From assembly GCA_017938695.1 (NCBI GenBank), contig JAGBBA010000057.1, forward strand, positions 506-64,505: a stretch of DNA of 64,000 bases, given 5' to 3'. Below, piece by piece: positions 2,705 through 59,706 of this stretch. Every line of letters starts with the position of its first letter. The stretch's first letter is position 1. This stretch comes from Clostridia bacterium (GTDB lineage: Bacteria > Bacillota > Clostridia > Christensenellales > Aristaeellaceae). Both the position numbers and the translations under genes were made by a program. The notes under the pieces are model-generated. The model was not told the origin of the DNA and did no database searches. It saw only the letters and a program-made list of their open reading frames with translations.

Positions 2705-3388
2705 ATGAAGTACCGCTATCTCCTGGCTGACAACGACAACACCCTGATGGACTTCGATGCCGCCGAACGCAAGGCATTGCGCAACGCCCTGGCTGCCTTC
2801 GGCCAGAGCTGCGACGATGAAACCTTTAACACCTATCACCACATCAACAAGCTTCTGTGGGAGGCCCTTGAGCGCGGCGAAACCACCCAGGCCAAGCTAA
2901 AGGTAGAACGCTTCGCCCAGCTCATCGCCCACTACGGATGGCCGGGCATTGACCCGGTGCAGCTGGCCGCCACCTTCCAGAACGACTTGGCCACCCATGC
3001 CGATCTGATCCCCGGCACGATGGATTTCCTCCGAGCCGTGAAGCCCCACATGAAGATCGCCCTGGTGTCCAACGGCGTCAGCTTCACCCAGCGCAACCGC
3101 CTGAGCGTGTGCGAGTTCACTTACCTGCTGGACGCGGTGGTGATCTCCGAGGAGATCGGCGTCAGCAAGCCCAATCCTCTGATGGTGGAAAAAGCCCTCG
3201 AAATGCTGGGCTGCACCGACAAGCGCGAGGCCGTTTTCCTGGGGGATAGTCACTCCGCTGACATTGCCGCCGCCTGCAATGCGGGCATCGACAGCATCTG
3301 GCTCACCCGCAAGGGGAAGGGGCAGAGCGACAAGGCTACCTATATTGTGGAAAGCCTGGAAGAGGCCGCTGAAATTCTGCTGAAGTAA
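2705..3388 (+). CDS. HAD-IA family hydrolase (nucleotidase/phosphatase-like)
   Basis: DxDxT motif (DNDNTLMDF), SNG motif and a C-terminal GDS..D motif. The ATG at 2705 follows GAGG; the track start at 2693 is a GTG overlapping the previous stop. Confidence 0.8.
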   Translation: MKYRYLLADNDNTLMDFDAAERKALRNALAAFGQSCDDETFNTYHHINKLLWEALERGETTQAKLKVERFAQLIAHYGWPGIDPVQLAATFQNDLATHADLIPGTMDFLRAVKPHMKIALVSNGVSFTQRNRLSVCEFTYLLDAVVISEEIGVSKPNPLMVEKALEMLGCTDKREAVFLGDSHSADIAAACNAGIDSIWLTRKGKGQSDKATYIVESLEEAAEILLK

Positions 3389-3397
3389 ATGAACAGA

Positions 3398-3429
3398 AAC
3401 CGCAAGCTGGTCAAGGCTTGCGGTTTTTT
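3398..3429 (+). terminator. rho-independent terminator after the HAD gene
   Basis: aaccgcaagc / gcttgcggtt 10-bp stem followed by a T-run. Confidence 0.8.
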
Positions 3430-3457
3430 GCAAGCAGGTTTATATTGCAGCAAGGGG

Positions 3458-3700
3458 CCGCTTTCGCGCGTCGAAAGCGGCGCAAAGCCGCCGGGGGGAA
3501 GCGATTACGCTTCCCTCCGGACCCCCTCGCTCCTTTTGGGGCAAGTCGAGCGGCTGTAAAGCGGGGCGGCTCCGTTGCAGAGGATTGCCTGAATTTCCGC
3601 TTTCAGCGGAAGCAATCCTCTGCAAAGTCACCGCATTGTTCCTTTGCGGCTTGAGCGACAGCCGCAGGGGCTTGAGGGGGGCGGGGCTGCTGGCTGTTTT
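3458..3700. repeat. hairpin-array intergenic element (distant member of the window-wide family)
   Basis: Consecutive perfect hairpins: ccgctttcg/cgaaagcgg, gggaagcg/cgcttccc and a long gcagaggattgc...gcaatcctctgc at 3577-3623. The GAGGATTGCC core is shared with other copies. Confidence 0.6.
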
Positions 3701-3790
3701 GGGGAAAGGTATACTCAGGGTTCGGGTTTTTCTTGTATTTTCCATCATGGGTATGGTATACTGAAAAAAAGTTTCGTTGGAGGTGCCGGT

Positions 3791-5024: not shown

Positions 5025-5049
5025 AAATCCTCCATGTAAACTCAGATTG

Positions 5050-5260
5050 CCCAAAGGCTGATTTGGGTTCGACTAATTCAGCTGTCCGCAGGACTAAAAT
5101 CATGTAAGCCGGCTTTGCCGGCTTCGCGGGTCGTTGATTTTGCTTGCAAAATCAATTCCTTACAAATCCAGCCGTCCTCTGGTCGGCTGGATTTGCTTCC
5201 TCAAAAAAGTGGCTCTGCCACTTTTTTGAAACATAAAGCCGCAGCAAAAGCGCTGCGGCT
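5050..5260. repeat. array of six consecutive hairpins between two minus-strand genes
   Basis: Stems at about 5050-5067, 5106-5124, 5134-5155, 5164-5193, 5203-5227 (aaaaaagtggctctgccactttttt) and 5237-5260. The last two probably act as the recA terminator. Confidence 0.6.
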
Positions 5261-5267
5261 GCTTTTC

Positions 5268-6401
5268 TTATTCGTCTGCCAGTTCTTCTTCCAGCAGGGC
5301 CAGATCGTCCTCTTCCTCCTCGGCCTGGAGCTTCATGGCAGCCTCGTCCTCGGGGGCGGGCTCAGCGAAGAGCTCCTTGCGCAGGATAGCGTCGATCTCG
5401 TCGGTGATCTCGGGGTTGTCGCGCAGGTACAGGCGGGTGTTCTCGCGGCCCTGGCCGATGCGCTGATCCTTGTAGGAGAACCACGCGCCGCTCTTGTGGA
5501 TGATGTCGCGCTCCACGGCCATATCCAGCAGGGTGCCTTCCTTGGAGATGCCCTCGCCGTACACGATATCGAACTCGGCCACGCGGAAGGGCGGAGCCAC
5601 CTTGTTCTTCACGACCTTCACCTTGGTGTGGTTGCCCACGATGGCGGTGCCGTTCTTGAGCTGCTCGCCGCGGCGCACGTCCAGGCGCACAGAGGCGTAG
5701 AACTTCAGCGCACGGCCGCCGGGAGTGGTTTCGGGGTTGCCGTACATCACGCCCACCTTTTCACGCAGCTGGTTGATGAACACCGCCACGCAGCCGGTCT
5801 TGTTGATGATACCGGCCAGCTTGCGCAGGGCCTGGCTCATCAGTCGGGCCTGCAGGCCCACGAAGCTGTCGCCCATTTCGCCGTCGATTTCCGCCTTGGG
5901 CACCAGGGCCGCCACGGAGTCGATCACCACCACGTCCAGTGCACCGGAGCGCACCAGAGCCTCGGCAATTTCCAGGGCCTGCTCGCCGGTGTCGGGCTGG
6001 GAAACATAGAGCTCGTCGATGTTCACGCCCAGCTTCTTGGCATACACGGGGTCCAGCGCGTGCTCGGCGTCCACAAAGGCCGCGATGCCGCCAGCCTTCT
6101 GGGCCTCCGCCACGATGTGCAGGGCCACAGTGGTCTTACCGGAGGATTCAGGGCCATAGATCTCCACGATACGGCCGCGGGGAATACCGCCCACGCCCAG
6201 GGCTGCGTCCAGGGTGAGGCAGCCGGTGGGGATCACCTCGATATTCTGGGTGCTGGCCTCGCCCAGCTTCATCACAGAACCCTTGCCAAACTGTTTATCC
6301 AGATCAGCCAGCGCATGCTCCAGCGCCTTGAGCTTCTCTGCCTGCGCCCCGTCCTTCACGGGTGCAGTCTTTTCGGCCTTTGCCGCTTTCTTCGTTGCCA
6401 T
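5268..6401 (-). CDS. recA: recombinase RecA
   Basis: Walker A GPESSGKT and the typical RecA core ([24 protein letters not shown]). The ATG at 6401 follows AAAGGA; the track start at 6410 is a GTG too close to the RBS. Confidence 0.97.
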
Positions 6402-6483
6402 GTTGAACACGTCCTTTCAACTCGATAGACCTATCGTATCACGGCCTGTTCGCATTTGCAAGGGGAACACGCGAAAAAAGTCG

Positions 6484-6660
6484 CTTAAGGGCTTTCAGCC
6501 CTTAAGAATCCCGACCAGAGGGATTTCATCCCTCTGGACTCCCGCTCGGGGGTGGCCGGCGTAGTGGTCTGCGGGCAGGGGTCACGGCGCGAATACGGTC
6601 GCGCCGCGACGCGGAGCATGCGGCATTTGTGGCATACGCACTCCATTATTTCTCATTCAT
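6484..6660 (+). repeat. short copy of the mosaic hairpin element (2 unit hairpins + GC-hairpin module)
   Basis: cttaagggctttcagcccttaag (6484-6506), ccagagggatttcatccctctgg (6515-6537) and ggtcacggcgcga..tcgcgccgcgacgcggagc (6579-6617). Confidence 0.75.
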
Positions 6661-6688: not shown

Positions 6689-6718
6689 TTGACATTCATC
6701 CTTTTCCGGGCGTATAAT
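6689..6718 (+). promoter_or_regulatory. sigma-70-type promoter for the aro leader/operon
   Basis: TTGACA (6689-6694), an 18-nt spacer, then TATAAT (6713-6718). Confidence 0.6.
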
Positions 6719-6758: not shown

Positions 6759-6821
6759 ATGCTGCATTGCTTCTACTTTACGTTTAGCGTCCCGGGCGGC
6801 TTTGCCGTGCCGGGTGTCTGA
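6759..6821 (+). CDS. candidate 20-aa leader peptide MLHCFYFTFSVPGGFAVPGV (Phe/Tyr-rich)
   Basis: AGGAGG sits 7 nt upstream of the ATG. The FYFTF codon cluster is at 6771-6785. It lies between the promoter and the terminator, upstream of DAHP synthase. Confidence 0.4.
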   Translation: MLHCFYFTFSVPGGFAVPGV

Positions 6822-6930: not shown

Positions 6931-7944
6931 ATGATTATCGTTCTGAAGCAAGGCACTTCCCAGCAGGAGATTGACAAGCTGACAAACATTATCGTCAGCA
7001 AGGGCATCAATGTGAATCCTATGTTTGGTTCCGATCTGACCATTCTGGGCCTGATCGGCGACACCAGCCAGGTCGACCCCGCCCAGATCGAGTCCTTCCG
7101 CTGCGTTGAACGCATCATGAAGGTGGCAGAGCCCTTCAAAAAGGCCAACCGTATGTTCCACCCCGGCGAGAGCGTCATCAAGGTGGGCGATACCGAGGTG
7201 GGCGGCAAGAAGCTGGCCATTATGGCAGGCCCCTGCTCGGTGGAGAGCAAGGAGCAGATCACCTATGTGGCCCAGGAGGTCAAGAAGGCCGGTGCCACCA
7301 TTCTGCGCGGCGGTGCCTTCAAGCCCCGCACCTCCCCCTATGCCTTCCAGGGCCTGAAGTACGACGGCCTTGATCTGCTGGTAGAGGCCCGCGCCGCCAC
7401 CGGCCTGCCCATTGTTACCGAGATCATGAGCCCCTACGACATCGAGATCTTCGATGAAAAGGTGGACTGCATCCAGGTGGGTGCCCGCAACATGCAGAAC
7501 TTCGACCTTCTGCGCCTGCTGGGCCAGAGCAAGAAGCCCATCCTGCTCAAGCGCGGCCTGTCCTCCACCATCGAAGAGTGGCTCATGAGTGCCGAGTACA
7601 TCATGGCCGGTGGCAACCCCAACGTGATCCTGTGCGAGCGCGGCATCCGCACCTACGAAACCTACACCCGCAACACCCTGGACCTTTCCGCCGTGCTGGC
7701 CGTGAAGCGTCTGAGCCACCTGCCGGTCATCGTTGACCCCAGCCACGCCACCGGCAAGTTCTGGATGGTGGAGCCCCTGGCCCGCGCCGCCATCGCCGTA
7801 GGTGCCGACGGCGTGATGATCGAAGTCCACAACGACCCCGCCCACGCCCTGTGCGACGGTGCCCAATCCATCAAGCCCGACCTCTTCGCCGACGTCATGA
7901 AGGACATCCGCACCATCGCCGCCTGTGTCGGCCGCGAGGCCTAA
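6931..7944 (+). CDS. aroF: 3-deoxy-7-phosphoheptulonate (DAHP) synthase, type I-beta with N-terminal regulatory domain
   Basis: AAAGGAGG RBS. KDO8P/DAHP I-beta core (AGPCSVES, RGGAFKPRTSPY, DPSHATG) preceded by an extra domain of about 65 aa. Confidence 0.92.
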   Translation: MIIVLKQGTSQQEIDKLTNIIVSKGINVNPMFGSDLTILGLIGDTSQVDPAQIESFRCVERIMKVAEPFKKANRMFHPGESVIKVGDTEVGGKKLAIMAGPCSVESKEQITYVAQEVKKAGATILRGGAFKPRTSPYAFQGLKYDGLDLLVEARAATGLPIVTEIMSPYDIEIFDEKVDCIQVGARNMQNFDLLRLLGQSKKPILLKRGLSSTIEEWLMSAEYIMAGGNPNVILCERGIRTYETYTRNTLDLSAVLAVKRLSHLPVIVDPSHATGKFWMVEPLARAAIAVGADGVMIEVHNDPAHALCDGAQSIKPDLFADVMKDIRTIAACVGREA

Positions 7945-8239
7945 GGGGACTCTGTACCCTTAGGGATCCCCTGTCAGAGGGGCTTTGCCCCTCTGGACAC
8001 CCCACGAAGGGCCTTCGGCCCTTTCGAAACCCATGCGGGGAGAGCGTTGCTTGGCGGTCTCCGAGCTGGGGTCCCGGCGCGCAACGGGCGCGCCGCGACG
8101 CGGAGCAAGGCGCAAAGCCTCCCTTGTGCAAAGGGAGGTGGCAGCCCGCAGGGCTGCCGGAGGGATTGCCTGCTGCAATTCCCCTCATGCGCCCAGCCCA
8201 CACTCCATTCCGCATTCCGAATTCCGAATTCCGAATTCT
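7941..8239 (+). repeat. long mosaic hairpin element inside the aroF-aroB intergenic region (no terminator module)
   Basis: Three unit hairpins (7941-7963, 7974-7997, 8004-8025), the GC hairpin (8071-8107), the caaagcctccc..aagggaggtggcagccc..gggctgccggagggattgcctgc module (8113-8176) and a heptamer array (8205-8239). It is collinear with the 38740-39091 copy. Confidence 0.85.
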
Positions 8240-37995: not shown

Positions 37996-38742
37996 ATGTC
38001 CGGTCATTCCAAGTGGCATAATATTCAGGCTAAGAAAGGCAAGGCCGACGCCAAGCGCGGCGCGATTTTCACCAAGATCGGCCGCGAGATCGCCATCGCC
38101 GTGCGCGAGGGCGGCGCTAACCCCGAGTCCAACGGCAAGCTGCGCGACGTGATCGCCAAGGCCAAGGCCAACAACATGCCCAACGATAACATCCAGCGTT
38201 CCATCAAGAAGGCTTCCGGTGAAATGGGCGACGTGAACTACGAGCAGATCACCTACGAAGGCTATGCCCCCGGCGGCGTGGCTGTGATCGTGGATACCAT
38301 CACCGACAACCGCAACCGCACCGTGTCCGACGTGCGCCACTGCTTCGCCAAGAACGGCGGCAACCTGGGCAACGCCGGTTCCGTGTCCTTCATGTTCGAC
38401 GAGAAGGGCGTGCTGGTGGTGGAGCGCACCCCCGGCAGCGATGAGGACGAAATGATGATGATGGCTCTGGACGCCGGTGCCGAAGACATGAAGGCCGAGG
38501 AAGACGTCTACGAGATCTACACCTCCCCCGCCGATTTCTCCGCCGTCCGCGAAGCCCTCGAAGGCCAGGGCCTGACCTTCCTCTCCGCCGAGGTGAACAA
38601 GATCCCCCAGAACACCGTGTCTGTGGACGATCCCGACACCCTCAAGAACATCCAGAAGCTCCTGGACATGCTCGACGACAACGACGACGTGCAGAACGTT
38701 TACCACAACGCCGAACTCCCCGAGGAGGACGACGAGGAGTAA
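37996..38742 (+). CDS. yebC: YebC/PmpR-family DNA-binding regulator
   Basis: [23 protein letters not shown]-terminus. Full-length family match by motif. Confidence 0.93.
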
Positions 38743-39091
38743 GGGGCTCTGCCCCTTAACCCCGCCAAAGGGGCCTTGCCCCTTTGGAAACCCCACCAGA
38801 GGGCTCTGCCCTCTGGACTCCGCGAAGGGCCATTCGGCCCTCTCGACACCCATCCTGTGTGAGCATACAGGGTGGGTTTTCCTTTGGGGTCACGGCGCGC
38901 AACGGGCGCGCCGCGACGCAGGATAAGAGCAAAGCCTCCCTTGTGCAAAGGGAGGTGGCAGCCCGAAGGGCTGACGGAGGGATTGCCTGCCGCATCCCCC
39001 AACACGCCGCATTTATAAAATGTAGGAGCAAACTGCGTTCGCCCAGTCCACATTCTAAATTCCGCATTCCGAATTCCTAATTCCTAATTTT
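38740..39091 (+). repeat. full-length mosaic hairpin element (archetype copy)
   Basis: Four unit hairpins (38740-38759, 38765-38787, 38797-38817, 38823-38845), a terminator module (38847-38884), the GC hairpin (38888-38919), the cctccctt/aagggagg + ggcagccc modules with GGAGGGATTGCCTGC (38930-38990) and a heptamer array (39057-39091). Confidence 0.9.
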
Positions 39092-39151
39092 CTTTTCCTC
39101 CTCCCCGTGCTATAATATATCCACCACGAATCGTAAAAGGAGGCCGCCTCC

Positions 39152-51425: not shown

Positions 51426-51430
51426 AGGCG

Positions 51431-51690
51431 TCACGAAAGTGGCAAAGCCACTTTCGTGAGGATTGCGCTCCGTCACTGTTCGCTACGCTCACGGGCGTTC
51501 CTTCGCGTAAGGTATGTTTTCCGGTTTCGGCCATCACCGGGGCAAGCCCGGCGATGGCTACACTTGCCCATTGCAAGCAATGGGCTGCGTTAGTCAGGCT
51601 GAAGCCTGACCTCACGGAGCGAAAACGCCCCGCCCCGTCGGCGGAGCCGCCGGATACGATTACAGTCAGAGGGCCTGCGGGCCCTCCGAT
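51431..51690 (+). repeat. hairpin-array intergenic element
   Basis: tcacgaaagtggcaaagccactttcgtga (51431-51459) followed by GAGGATTGCG. Further hairpins at 51531-51557, 51566-51585, 51594-51611 and 51667-51688. Confidence 0.6.
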
Positions 51691-51771
51691 ACCTCCCAGG
51701 TTTTGCAAAGTATATGAAGGAGCGTGCTGCCACGCTCCTTCTGTTATATCTGCCCGAAAGGAGGTCCACCT

Positions 51772-52943: not shown

Positions 52944-53245
52944 AGAAGAAACACCGCGGGCAATGCAGCAGGCAATCCCTCCGGCTTCGCTGCGCTCAGC
53001 CACCTCCCTTTGCACAAGGGAGGCTTTGCGTCTTGCCCTCAATTCGGCATTGTCGCGGTGCACCCGTTGCGCGCCGTGACCCCTGCAAAGGAAAAACCCA
53101 CGCTGCTCTCGCAAAGTGGGTTTCGAAAGGGCCGAACGGCCCTTCGTGGGGTGGAGGGGCAACGCCCCTCCCGGGAGTCCAGAGGGCAGAGCCCTCTGGC
53201 GGGTGTGCAGAGGGCAGAGCCCTTTGCCAGGGGCAAAGCACCTGG
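52944..53245 (-). repeat. full-length mosaic hairpin element, inverted orientation, abutting the dnaA stop
   Basis: The reverse complement is collinear with 38740-39091: five unit hairpins, a terminator module (aaacccac..gtgggttttt), the GC hairpin, the cctccctt/aagggagg module and GGAGGGATTGCCTGC. There is no heptamer array. Confidence 0.85.
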
Positions 53246-54577
53246 TCACTTGCCTTCTTTGATGAGGTTTTTGATGTCGTTGACCACGCTGGACATGGAG
53301 GAAGAGGACTTGATGTTGGCGGCCACGGTGTTGCATGAGTGCAGGATGGTGGAGTGGTCGCGGTTGCCGAAGGCCTGGCCGATCTGGGGCAGGCTCATGG
53401 TGGTCATCTCACGGGTGAGGTAGATGGCGATCTGCCGGGGCACGGTGATCTCGCGGCGGCGGGTGGAGCTGATGAGATCAGCGGTGGTAATGCCGTAGTA
53501 GTTGCTCACCGTTTGCATGATGGTTTCGGCGGTGATGGCACGGGTCTTCTTGACGAAGATATCGCGCAGGGCGTCCTGGCAGAGGGCGGCGGTGATGGGC
53601 TCGCCCACCAGGTTGGCGTAGGCCACCAGGCGCGTCAGGCTGCCCTCCAGCTCGCGGATGTTGCTGTCCACATTGGAGGCGATCAGCTCCAGCACATCGT
53701 CGCCCACGTTGACGTGATCCTGCCGGGCCTTCTCGCGGAGGATGGCGATGCGGGTTTCAATGTCGGGCCGGGCGATATCGGCGATCAGTCCCCAGGCAAA
53801 GCGGCTGGAAAGACGCTCCTCCAGGCGGTTGATCTCCTGGGGCGGCTTGTCGCTGGTGAGGATGATCTGCTTGCCGGCGGTGTGCAGGGCGTTGAAGGTG
53901 TGGAAGAACTCCTCCTGGGTACTGTCGCGGCCGGCGATGAACTGGATATCGTCCACCATCAGGATGTCCACATTGCGGAAGCGGTTGCGGAACTCGGTGT
54001 TGCGGTTCTGCTGGATGGCGGAGATCAGCTCGTTGGTGAAGTTTTCGCTGGTGATGTAGAGCAGCCGCTTTTCGGGGTACTGCTGCTGCACATAATGGCC
54101 GATGGCGTGCATCAGGTGGGTCTTTCCCAGGCCCACGCCGCCGTGGATAAACAGGGGGTTGTAGGCATCGGCAGGGGATTCGGCCACCGCCAGGGAGGCC
54201 GCGTGGGCAAAGCGGTTATTGCTGCCCACCACAAAGGTATCGAAGGTGTACTTGGGGTTCAGCTGAACAGACCCTACCGCCAGGCCACTGGATGCAGCTG
54301 CCTGGGCGCGGATCTCGTCGTTTTCCAGTTCGGCACTGGTGAGCACGGTAACGGATATGCGGTGGCCAGCCACCTGCGAAATGCAGTTGGAAATCAGGGG
54401 CACATAACGGTTGTTGACCATCACCTTCATGGCTTCCATGCCAATGCGCAGGGTAAGCACATCGTTTTCCAGCTTCACAGGGGTGAGGTTGTTTTCGATC
54501 CAGGTTTGATAAGAAACCGGGTTGATCTCACTCTTGAGCAGCTCGCACGCGCTGTCCCAAAGTTCCTTCATGTCCAT
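53246..54577 (-). CDS. dnaA: chromosomal replication initiator DnaA
   Basis: AAA+ Walker A GGVGLGKTHL, box VII and C-terminal DNA-binding helix (IGQAFGNRDHSTILHS). GGAGGAAG RBS. Confidence 0.98.
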   Translation of the reverse strand: MDMKELWDSACELLKSEINPVSYQTWIENNLTPVKLENDVLTLRIGMEAMKVMVNNRYVPLISNCISQVAGHRISVTVLTSAELENDEIRAQAAASSGLAVGSVQLNPKYTFDTFVVGSNNRFAHAASLAVAESPADAYNPLFIHGGVGLGKTHLMHAIGHYVQQQYPEKRLLYITSENFTNELISAIQQNRNTEFRNRFRNVDILMVDDIQFIAGRDSTQEEFFHTFNALHTAGKQIILTSDKPPQEINRLEERLSSRFAWGLIADIARPDIETRIAILREKARQDHVNVGDDVLELIASNVDSNIRELEGSLTRLVAYANLVGEPITAALCQDALRDIFVKKTRAITAETIMQTVSNYYGITTADLISSTRRREITVPRQIAIYLTREMTTMSLPQIGQAFGNRDHSTILHSCNTVAANIKSSSSMSSVVNDIKNLIKEGK

Positions 54578-58595: not shown

Positions 58596-59618
58596 ATGAA
58601 GGAAAAGATCGCGCAGATTGAACAGCTGCTCGTAAGCGAGCTGGCGATGTGCGAAAACATGCAGGCCCTGGACGCCCTGCGCGTGAAGGTGCTGGGCAAG
58701 AAGGGCGAATTGACCGCCCTTTTGCGCGGCATGGGCCAGCTCTCCCCCGAGGAGCGTCCCGCCGCCGGCCAGATGATCAACGAGGCCCGTGAGAAGTTCA
58801 CCGCCATGCTGGAAGAAAAGCAGGCCCTGCTGAAGAAAAAGGCCCAGGAGGAAGCCCTCCAGCGCGAGACCATCGACGTGACCCAGCCCGCCGCTGCCCC
58901 CAAGGCTGGCTGCGTGCACCCCATGACCCTGGTGCTCAACGAAGTCATCGACTGCTTCACCGGCATGGGCTTCGAAGTGGTGGAAGGCCCCGAAGTGGAG
59001 CTGGATCACTACAACTTTGAACTGATGAACATCCCCAAGAATCACCCTGCCCGCGACGCGCAGGACACCTTCTATGTGGATGACAACATCGTGCTGCGCA
59101 CCCACACCAGCCCTGTGCAGGCCCGCACCATGCTCACCCGCAAGCCCCCCATCCGCGTTATCTGCCCCGGCCGCGTGTATCGTGCCGACGAGATGGATGC
59201 CACCCACAGCCCCGTCTTCCACCAGATGGAAGGCCTGGTCATCGACAAGGACGTGACCATGGCTGATCTGCGCGGCACCCTGAATGCCTTCGCCGAGCGG
59301 TTGTACGGCAAGGGTATCACCACCCGTTTCCGCCCCAGCTTCTTCCCCTTCACCGAGCCCTCCGCTGAGGTGGACCTGACCTGCGTGGCCTGCCACGGCA
59401 AGGGCTGCCGCGTGTGCAAGGGCACCGGCTGGATCGAGGTGCTGGGCTGCGGCATGGTCAACCCCCACGTGCTGGAAATGTGCGGCATCGACCCCAACGA
59501 GTACTCCGGCTTCGCCTTCGGCATCGGCATCGAGCGCATCACCATGCAGCGTTACGGCATCCCCGACCTGCGCCTCCTCTTCGAAGGCGACGTTCGTTTC
59601 CTGGGCCAGTTCCGCTGA
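58596..59618 (+). CDS. pheS: phenylalanine--tRNA ligase alpha subunit
   Basis: Class II aaRS motifs (FELMNIPKNHPARD, GRVYR, GFAFGIGIERI). Start at MKEKIAQ after GAAAGGAAGG. Confidence 0.96.
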   Translation: MKEKIAQIEQLLVSELAMCENMQALDALRVKVLGKKGELTALLRGMGQLSPEERPAAGQMINEAREKFTAMLEEKQALLKKKAQEEALQRETIDVTQPAAAPKAGCVHPMTLVLNEVIDCFTGMGFEVVEGPEVELDHYNFELMNIPKNHPARDAQDTFYVDDNIVLRTHTSPVQARTMLTRKPPIRVICPGRVYRADEMDATHSPVFHQMEGLVIDKDVTMADLRGTLNAFAERLYGKGITTRFRPSFFPFTEPSAEVDLTCVACHGKGCRVCKGTGWIEVLGCGMVNPHVLEMCGIDPNEYSGFAFGIGIERITMQRYGIPDLRLLFEGDVRFLGQFR

Positions 59619-59624
59619 GTTACG

Positions 59625-59706
59625 CCAGAGGCTCTGCCTCTGGACTCCGCCAAAGGGCTCTGCCCTTTGGAATCCCGCTTAAGGGTCTTCGACCCTTAAG
59701 AATCCC
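59625..59706 (+). repeat. three unit hairpins of the mosaic family between pheS and pheT
   Basis: ccagaggctctgcctctgg, ccaaagggctctgccctttgg and cttaagggtcttcgacccttaag, each followed by an RAHYCC tail. No T-run. Confidence 0.85.

Follow-up and report, generated by a model that had tools for sequence, protein, structure and literature searches.

The intergenic hairpin mosaic in a 64-kb stretch of DNA from an uncultured gut Clostridia bacterium (64,000 nucleotides of contig JAGBBA010000057.1; hereafter the window) is a stack of at least three kinds of small palindromic repeat. These are tandem unit hairpins with a C-rich tag, a terminator-like hairpin joined to a GC hairpin, and a module (CCTCCC hairpin, variable hairpin and GGAGGGATTG) that, judging from sequence comparison, represents the left end of an element that is found across Oscillospirales metagenome-assembled genomes (MAGs) and has inverted-repeat ends and a DUF559 endonuclease gene. 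A first-pass annotation of the window had described the mosaic as one modular family; we reject a single uniform family, since the parts are independent elements that differ strongly in distribution. The mosaic is probably a pile-up of small, mostly non-autonomous palindromic elements in gene-end spacers, made up of the units, the terminator-like and GC hairpins, and a relic of the DUF559 element. The window has a base composition of 60% GC, and its nearest coding matches are Faecousia and other Oscillospirales MAGs.

Three long copies of the mosaic are named here A (7941-8239, + strand), B (38740-39091, +) and C (52944-53245, -), and two short ones D (6484-6617) and E (59625-59706). Reading the modules in the sequence of copies A, B and C upheld the common module order claimed for them, which runs from tandem units through a longer hairpin and the GC hairpin to H1, H2 and the box GGAGGGATTGCCTGC, H1 being the CCTCCCTT/AAGGGAGG hairpin (the CCTCCC hairpin). 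By pairwise blastn, B and A are 80.5% identical over 231 nt, B and C 75.5% over 269 nt, and C and A 79.0% over 219 nt. Each stem that the first-pass annotation had listed was recovered by a mechanical hairpin scan, and folding of 38738-38995 gave a row of local hairpins (four units, the terminator-like stem, the GC hairpin, H1 and H2) at -148.6 kcal/mol, with z = -7.4 relative to shuffled sequences. The sequence of copy C is base-for-base the same in the assembly of an independent sample, which excludes an assembly artefact; with the second sample identical, the comparison is uninformative on polymorphism of this copy. A CRISPR array was also rejected, as the unit stems differ in sequence and the units abut through 5-8-nt tails. 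The order of the layers is fixed: units, terminator-like hairpin and GC hairpin form a cassette at the 3' end of a gene, and the DUF559 relic lies between this cassette and the next gene.

The link to DUF559 comes from a scan of one-genome-per-species contigs with the pattern AAGCCTCCCTT-N5-AAGGGAGGTGG, which was found at 120 loci or more (at least 120), most with record titles naming Oscillospiraceae, Faecousia, Acutalibacteraceae or Clostridia MAGs from guts. The anatomy figures below rest on 132 instances from these loci, among the matches listed. The window modules are 85-96% identical to those copies, and the coding matches found range from 67% to 91%. In its full form the element consists of H1 (AAAGCCTCCCTTGTGYAAAGGGAGGTGG), the variable-sequence hairpin H2, the box (A/G)CGGAGGGATTGT, a spacer, a second box (box') ACAATCCCYCAGTC, H2' and H1' (CAGCYCCCTTTRCACAAGGGRGCCTTT). 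H1' is the reverse complement of H1, giving inverted-repeat ends of ~27 bp, each end itself a hairpin; box' and H1' are both present in 64 of the 132 instances, and the ends have a mean identity of 82% as inverted repeats. The spacer between box and box' is bimodal, with a length of at most 60 nt in 64 instances, 300-420 nt in 12 and other lengths in 10, and ORF-less miniatures make up half of the sampled copies. The long spacer is an open reading frame (ORF) of 120-124 aa, found in 12 of the 132 instances, which starts 5-9 nt past the box, indicating that the box is its ribosome-binding site. Box' and H2' supply its last codons, (K/E)QSLSQLR-stop, the stop codon lying within H2', and the miniatures retain these last codons (AAACAATCCCTCAGTCAG). 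All 12 ORF-bearing copies have both ends in common with the miniatures, and the bimodal spacer reads as presence or absence of the nuclease ORF between conserved flanks.

A Pfam scan of two of these ORFs identified DUF559 (PF04480; E 4e-30 and 1.5e-25), and tblastn found 14 homologous ORFs in genome loci. The ORF's match to PRK09767, the NCBIfam DUF559 model, falls below the cut-off of that model; among solved structures 3HRL, an 'endonuclease-like protein', is the closest, and the residues D..ELDG..H are kept in the listed ORFs. In H2, compensatory changes occur at all six pairs and several pairs appear with all four Watson-Crick types (one pair is AU in 55 copies, UA in 30, CG in 7 and GC in 7). 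This comparison establishes that the window module is homologous to the ends of the DUF559 element, that ORF-bearing and ORF-less forms exist, and that H2 covaries. We interpret the full element as a tiny inverted-repeat element with a 122-aa DUF559 (Vsr-like PD-(D/E)XK) nuclease gene and abundant ORF-less miniatures. It adjoins unrelated genes in different genomes, and its insertion contexts are intergenic. A protein search with the DUF559 ORF gave E <= 1e-20 for 7977 of the best 8000 candidate 90%-identity clusters, some with ~1000 members on contigs of 0.5-1 kb, as expected of a multi-copy repeat that breaks short-read assemblies. The DUF559 literature that we searched describes no DUF559 mobile element, and the element is apparently both very abundant and undescribed.

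Beside some DUF559 elements we observed tandem H1-like hairpins or 47-nt repeats (L049 ~2800-3004, L004 3860-4000 and L067 2000-2300; L numbers denote the loci compared), which indicates that the H1 hairpin multiplies on its own too. At five other loci (L002, L083, L096, L109 and L114) a conserved stretch of ~110 nt (tttcagtttcgggcatagccctaa...ggcctgccagccatgca...) stands upstream of H1 of a miniature and may be the 3' end of an RNA gene or of some other element.

The window holds no DUF559 ORF by tblastn, which is why the first-pass annotation was unable to see this link. Its three long copies are truncated relics of ORF-less miniatures, all of them missing the H1' inverted repeat. The parts that are left are these:

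38930-38990, + strand: left end in copy B, with H1 at 38935-38955, H2 at 38959-38973 and the box ACGGAGGGATTGCCTGC at 38974-38990 (covariance model, CM, 78.9 bits, E 4e-24; in the training alignment).
38991-39005, + strand: right inner box remnant in copy B, CGCATCCCCCAACAC against the box' consensus given above, with H2' and H1' missing (comparison with L259).
8113-8187, + strand: left end in copy A, with H1 at 8118-8138, H2 at 8140-8158 and the box at 8157-8173, then a 5-nt spacer and a right inner box remnant at 8175-8187 (CM 75.8 bits; in the training alignment).
52972-53028, - strand: left end in copy C, whose H2 has two non-canonical pairs (CM 69.2 bits; in the training alignment).

With the CM of the H1-H2-box module, the three long copies are the only matches (E 1e-21 to 1e-24), and these match by construction, having been in its training alignment. 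The two broken pairs in H2 of copy C point to decay. Consistent with truncation, relatives with a 90% identical AroB (L259 and L260) have a complete ORF-less miniature upstream of aroB, exactly at the site of copy A, which runs H1, H2, box, 48 nt, box', H2', H1'. Relative to it, copy A has a spacer of only 5 nt and is missing ~42 nt comprising H2' and H1'. Relatives with 87% AroB identity have either a more decayed miniature (L261-L263) or an unrelated filler of ~330 nt (L265-L267). This filler, between the GC hairpin and aroB, is GC-rich and highly structured-looking and replaces the DUF559 miniature in one branch; that of L265 has no Rfam match. Two further loci with 'GAGGATTGC' (3578-3620 and 51458-51466) were considered as homologues of the H1-H2-box module and dropped, the CM having failed to detect them.

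The unit hairpins form a layer of their own. They are REP-like (repetitive extragenic palindrome) in size at ~19-25 nt, with 7-10-bp stems, 3-4-nt loops and a C-rich 3' tag RAMYCC, which takes the forms GACTCC, GAATCC, AACCCC or AAACCC; none of the unit tails of the window arrays has a GTAG or CGTC tag. When the scan asked for a perfect GGG-containing stem of 7 bp or more, a loop no longer than 9 nt and a tail [AG]A[ACT][ACT]CC, it counted 11 units in the window, as against a mean of 0.1 and a maximum of 1 in 100 first-order Markov simulations, and together with imperfect ones they are spread over six spacers. Perfect hairpins thus stand where the first-pass annotation had placed them, its CTCTG loop being the loop plus the closing C-G pair. 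Both of the loci that it had given as short copies made of units only were confirmed as unit loci, one (59625-59706) being three units, while the other (6484-6617) consists of two units plus a GC hairpin. All units of an array are direct, with the tail on the 3' side, and the last unit is always CGAAGGGCC..GGCCCTYTCG-AMACCC. Four of the five arrays overlap the upstream stop codon or begin 0-8 nt past it, in sense orientation; the genes upstream of them are the DAHP-synthase gene, yebC, dnaA and a gene ending at 59618. The fifth array, that of copy D, lies in the divergent spacer between recA and the DAHP-synthase gene. The arrays are:

38740-38851, + strand: copy B, four units with C-rich tails (sequence, hairpin scan, folding). 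Unit 1, TAAGGGGC-tct-GCCCCTTA, at 38740-38758 includes the yebC stop codon; units 2-4 are at 38765-38787, 38796-38816 and 38823-38845.
7940-8031, + strand: copy A, three units and tail (hairpin scan), at 7940-7964 (including the DAHP-synthase stop codon), 7975-7995 and 8005-8025.
53124-53245, - strand: copy C, five units directly after the dnaA stop codon (sequence, hairpin scan), at 53245-53227, 53226-53208, 53199-53179, 53171-53153 and 53146-53124.
6484-6612, + strand: copy D, two units (6484-6506 and 6515-6537) and a GC hairpin (core 6585-6606), inverted relative to recA.
59625-59706, + strand: copy E, three units, the first 7 nt past the stop codon (sequence, hairpin scan).

After the last unit comes a hairpin of the form ACCCA-variable-TGGGT followed by TTTYCCTTTG, and then the GC hairpin, with a 12-bp stem. 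One hairpin per cassette has the form of an intrinsic terminator: in copy B the GC-rich stem-loop at 38848-38877 with its T-tract was called terminator-like by the scan, and its copy C counterpart (53121-53085) was recognised by eye and is absent from the scan output for that region. No T-tract follows the unit hairpins, the GC hairpin, H1 or H2 on the sense strand. The terminator stem covaries among the copies and relatives, with the ACCCA/TGGGT base and T-tract kept, and the inner pairs of the GC hairpin covary in relatives (CGGCGCAT/ATGCGCCG and CGGCGCGA/TCGCGCCG), with the base of the stem kept. The hairpins of this layer are:

38848-38887, + strand: copy B terminator-like hairpin ACCCATCCTGT..ACAGGGTGGGT, then TTTCCTTTGG (terminator scan).
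38888-38917, + strand: copy B GC hairpin GGTCACGGCGCGC-AACGG-GCGCGCCGCGAC (sequence, hairpin scan).
8070-8099, + strand: copy A GC hairpin, perfect core 8075-8095 (sequence, hairpin scan).
53052-53121, - strand: copy C GC hairpin with substitutions (53082-53052), preceded by the terminator-like hairpin and its T-tract (53121-53085).

The distribution of the units is also their own. Arrays in the yebC-recA spacer of relatives lack the DUF559 module, and no DUF559 was found near unit-type hairpins in the metagenome loci, indicating that units and DUF559 modules are independent. Scanning metagenome contigs with the pattern CCAGAGGG-N5-7-CCCTCTGGACTCC found the same grammar, among the matches listed, in contigs of 31-72% GC; within those matches a further hairpin, its inner stem GGGG/CCCC and its spacer (A)CCCC, stands directly upstream in 76 of 118 distinct contexts, and arrays of 2-5 units are common. 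The grammar of a G-rich-arm hairpin with a C-rich tag in direct tandem is therefore far wider than this lineage, in a sample that is biased by the query. Hairpins of the same grammar (...ggttccccctctggactccc) stand at 'intractable' sequencing gaps of Desulfovibrio desulfuricans ND132, reported with no element described (PMC3409199, Table 3), and thus such arrays exist in Desulfobacterota and hinder sequencing.

Several further observations were made at the metagenome loci. At L130, L143, L147, L155, L157 and others (63-70% GC), three unit-type hairpins lie inside an outer pairing GGGTGAAGG ... CCCTTCACTTGG, a four-way-junction-like element that is repeated over many metagenome contigs. A soil-type three-hairpin array has no PLSDB match by BLAST. 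At L141, L158, L215, L228 and L243 the matched hairpin is followed by CAGAGRNCAGAG-type repeats. Small ORF clusters near the unit hits encode a reverse-transcriptase-like protein (e.g. L224) and a four-helix-bundle protein (e.g. L228), each in only a few loci (3-4), and together with the CAGAGRNCAGAG repeats they may mark a retroelement context.

Comparison of close strains showed that both the number of units and the presence of whole blocks vary, a polymorphism expected of REP-like repeats. Downstream of yebC, where the window has four units, strains with one identical YebC (99% identical to that of the window) have three (L249) or five (L248), and L246 and L247, with that same YebC, have two units and a third whose loop is interrupted by ~130 nt of inserted sequence. 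In relatives whose YebC is 92-95% identical, units are absent and the terminators are ordinary. Between strains, both arms of one unit carry paired changes (CTTAAG..CTTAAG vs CCCAAG..CTTGGG). The insertion in L246/L247 (~2825-2955) lies in the loop of the last unit, between CGAAGGGCCGTTCG and CCCTTTCG, which indicates that the hairpins themselves can be insertion targets. Between yebC and pdp, a 246-nt block of a second hairpin family is present in L251 and L252 and absent in L253 and L254, which have an identical YebC and the same neighbouring gene. This block (2790-3040) interrupts the yebC terminator, of which ~25 nt (CAGCAGCTTGAGGGTTCAGGCTGCT) are duplicated on both sides; the duplication is unusually long for a target duplication. 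Similarly, a block of ~230 nt (window 51460-51690) lies between the terminator stem and T-tract of purC and is absent in L270, whose PurC is identical.

Rearrangement junctions also fall inside the elements. L259 and L260 have an identical AroB and different upstream genes, and the two sequences join within the layer of terminator and GC hairpin. In relatives the order is yebC, cassette, recA, which in the window is broken at copy D: recA abuts the inverted copy D, yebC is followed by copy B and pdp, and the yebC-recA spacer of the relatives has the copy D block in the other orientation. Contigs of other samples end 51-213 nt past yebC.

The second family also accounts for part of what the first-pass annotation had listed as three looser loci of the same mosaic. 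Two of these are indeed interrelated, as window 5040-5270 and 51426-51771 have common sequence and both match the 246-nt insertion of L251, and they constitute a separate family; the third (3458-3700) has no significant similarity to the other spacers compared, window 3400-3720 giving no match among them. The blocks of this family and the heptamer blocks beyond the DUF559 relics are:

51460-51690, + strand: second-family hairpin block ending in a unit-like hairpin at 51669-51686 (absent in L270; related to the L251 insertion and window 5040-5270).
5106-5260, + strand: second-family hairpin block, e.g. TCAAAAAAGTGGC-tct-GCCACTTTTTTGA (hairpin scan, blastn).
39041-39097, + strand: copy B heptamer block CCCAGTCCACATTCTAAATTCCGCATTCCGAATTCC, repeats ATTCCKM, common to copy A (repeat-family search, blastn).
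8196-8238, + strand: heptamer block of copy A, with the aroB ribosome-binding site directly downstream (sequence, comparison with relatives).

The heptamer block, (ATTCCGM)n, is kept upstream of aroB in L259-L263 and recurs in copy B upstream of pdp. Its heptamers are ATTCCGC, ATTCCGA and ATTCCTA, preceded by CCCACACTC(T)AAA, and the block could be a protein-binding site or part of a repeated block. Upstream of the DAHP-synthase gene (6931-7944), a 20-codon ORF rich in Phe and Tyr (MLHCFYFTFSVPGGFAVPGV*, 6759-6821) follows a promoter-like TTGACA-18-TATAAT at 6689-6718 and is itself followed by hairpins. It is kept in the relative L261 (MRHCFYFTFTTPGGFAVPGV*) and looks like an aromatic-amino-acid attenuation leader. 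The gene dnaA is at 53246-54577 (-), and the replication-origin region is therefore probably covered by the window; a gene other than dnaN follows dnaA on that strand, copy C separates dnaA from a convergent acyltransferase gene, and recA is at 5268-6410 (-).

How such elements would come to be piled up in gene-end spacers can be proposed in outline. The DUF559 nuclease may act in trans, spreading or maintaining the miniatures; most plausibly it would cleave either at the junction of box and box' or at the hairpin ends, and repair templated by a different copy of the element would then spread the ORF or the element by homing or gene conversion. We offer mobilisation by the nuclease tentatively, as a possibility that fits three features: the element has no gene other than the nuclease, this gene is present or absent between conserved flanks, and a transposase is lacking. 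The unit hairpins would spread by a hairpin-specific process of REP type, for which a hairpin-specific HUH enzyme, slippage and hairpin-templated repair are open alternatives. Any present effects of the window copies, as structured 3' untranslated regions at the stop codon, in termination of the upstream gene or as recombination substrates, would be incidental. A number of points weigh against this account. The breakpoints of the unit-array indels are not always at unit boundaries, which fits slippage or hairpin-templated repair equally well as transposition, and the metagenome scan demanded one specific hairpin and so gives a biased sample of the units' spread. H1 was fixed by the search pattern, so that its invariance carries no information, and the copy counts for the mosaic are those of the 64-kb window. 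For the DUF559 element we found no clean empty site or target-site duplication, the sole cross-genome flank match (L024, L067) having elements in both, and to our knowledge DUF559 is not a transposase family. An RNA structure, such as a 5' leader that controls translation of DUF559, would account for the H2 covariation equally well, and the CCUCCC of H1 is an anti-Shine-Dalgarno sequence to the GGAGGG box.

Other explanations were weighed against the same evidence. The units might be classical REP/REPIN elements mobilised by a single-copy Y1 transposase (REP-associated tyrosine transposase, RAYT; IS200/IS605-like) encoded elsewhere, with the tail as a cleavage or guide tag and the DUF559 module as an unrelated neighbour. 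Such units would be expected to look much as these do, being short GC-rich palindromes with a conserved unpaired tag at gene ends, variable in number between strains and similar to the GTAG- and CGTC-tagged REP super-families (PMC3733652), and the same grammar recurs in very different metagenomic contigs, often with the further upstream hairpin described above. Their tag, however, is neither GTAG nor CGTC, they are all direct with no inverted REPIN/BIME (bacterial interspersed mosaic element) doublets, and the survey of tagged REPs makes no mention of Firmicutes (PMC3733652). Moreover, a Y1 transposase is lacking from the genes annotated with Pfam in ~31 kb of the window and in the relatives' loci, and the 573 kb surrounding the metagenome matches contain no recurrent transposase-like cluster. 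On balance we regard this explanation as rather unlikely, although it is the one of the alternatives that we would take most seriously.

The gene-end position of the arrays can also be read as function: the composites would be spacers maintained by the host, as mRNA 3'-end stabilisers and terminators or as sites for nucleoid proteins or gyrase, their similarity being due to selection and gene conversion. E. coli REPs affect mRNA stability and translation termination, and four of the five arrays here start 0-8 nt past a stop codon, in sense orientation, and lead into a terminator-like hairpin with a covarying stem. Copy D, however, lies inverted relative to recA in a divergent promoter region, close strains and species lack arrays at the same loci and have plain terminators instead, the unit number is unstable between strains, and the DUF559-derived part lies beyond the terminator; together these make host maintenance improbable. 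Still less probable, in our judgement, is that H1, H2 and the box form a functional cis-regulatory RNA leader that hides or exposes a Shine-Dalgarno sequence, through which the long copies would regulate the downstream aroB and pdp. The strong compensatory covariation in H2 argues for it, as do the two alternative pairing partners of the H1 CCUCCC, GGGAGG (which gives H1) and the GGAGGG box, the use of the box as the actual ribosome-binding site of the ORF at 12 loci, and the orientation of copies A and B toward downstream genes. Yet the box in the window is 80-165 nt upstream of the next start codon and the downstream genes have ribosome-binding sites of their own; copy C faces the end of a convergently oriented gene and has a broken H2; and the module repeats inverted at the other end of the element, stands beside unrelated genes in different genomes and has no Rfam match. 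It is possible that the module is the leader of the DUF559 gene itself, a gene that is absent from the window.

The claim that the mosaic matches no described family held up in Rfam and in the literature searched. Rfam 15 gave no match at the gathering score in the window, 20 metagenome loci or 14 related loci, and the focal 461 nt gave only chance-level matches to Rfam at E <= 10. Four 15-nt H1/H1' strings are absent from the literature searched, two short box strings occur there only in unrelated papers, and two of six 13-mer unit-hairpin strings have one match each, in papers without a description of such an element, one being that on the ND132 gaps and the other unrelated. The window copies themselves are ordinary relics; what is of interest is the link to DUF559 and how widespread the tagged hairpin arrays are. 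If this link holds, a very large domain-of-unknown-function family gains a concrete role, as the nuclease of a hairpin-ended mini-element, and a second enzyme class joins the few systems that populate bacterial genomes with palindromic repeats. It is a speculative and on present showing doubtful extension that DUF559 nucleases would be the engine of an unrecognised class of bacterial selfish DNA, in which hairpin-ended inverted-repeat cassettes have a nuclease gene that homes into or mobilises ORF-less miniatures, these occupying the gene-end spacers of gut Clostridia in great numbers, and that the RAMYCC-tagged arrays would be a third 'tagged REP' super-family across many phyla. In practical terms, the elements break short-read assemblies of abundant gut Clostridia, whose contigs end inside them, mark strain rearrangement junctions and yield spurious small ORFs.

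The first-pass annotation had compared the mosaic to REP/BIME-type elements or to miniature inverted-repeat transposable elements (MITEs), and the likeness stands for the intergenic palindromic repeats, the REP/BIME-like mosaic and a MITE-like component, with the reservation that GTAG and CGTC tags are absent and the units are direct, not alternating. As in the REP/BIME/REPIN elements of Enterobacteria and Pseudomonas (PMC3733652, PMC3116915), the units are short GC-rich imperfect palindromes with a conserved unpaired tag, arranged in mosaic arrays with other motifs in gene-end spacers, with strain-variable copy number and with recombination and assembly breakpoints. The window units differ from these in having the tag RAMYCC on the 3' side instead of GTAG or CGTC, in being tandem and direct instead of alternating or in inverted doublets, in their Firmicute (Clostridia) host, and in that no RAYT gene was found in the annotated ~31 kb of the window, the relatives' loci or the recurrent metagenome ORF clusters; the REP super-families surveyed are GTAG- and CGTC-tagged (PMC3733652). 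The DUF559 element resembles a MITE in its ~27-bp terminal inverted repeats (true of the family, the three window copies being without H1'), in the minority of copies with an ORF alongside a majority of ORF-less miniatures that keep both ends, and in the derivation of these miniatures by internal deletion from an ORF-bearing form with the same ends. In contrast to MITEs, the full element has as its sole ORF a gene for a 122-aa PD-(D/E)XK nuclease instead of a transposase, its inverted repeats are hairpins in themselves, and the window copies have no right end. Free-standing homing-endonuclease genes include the Vsr-like (EDxHD) I-Bth0305I, and they too are small nuclease genes, abundant and patchy, that are present or absent between conserved flanks; classical homing, however, targets one conserved allele, whereas the ORF-less miniature, dispersed over many loci, would be the 'allele' here. 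The BOX, RUP and SPRITE elements of Streptococcus pneumoniae are likewise small mosaic repeats, modular and intergenic, composed of several sub-units that fold into stable hairpins. Their modules differ and have no evident sequence relation to the window elements, and we know of no nuclease-gene-bearing master form described for them. If its proposed role is true, the DUF559 nuclease with its miniatures would be the functional analogue of the RAYT/REPIN partnership, built on a different enzyme fold.

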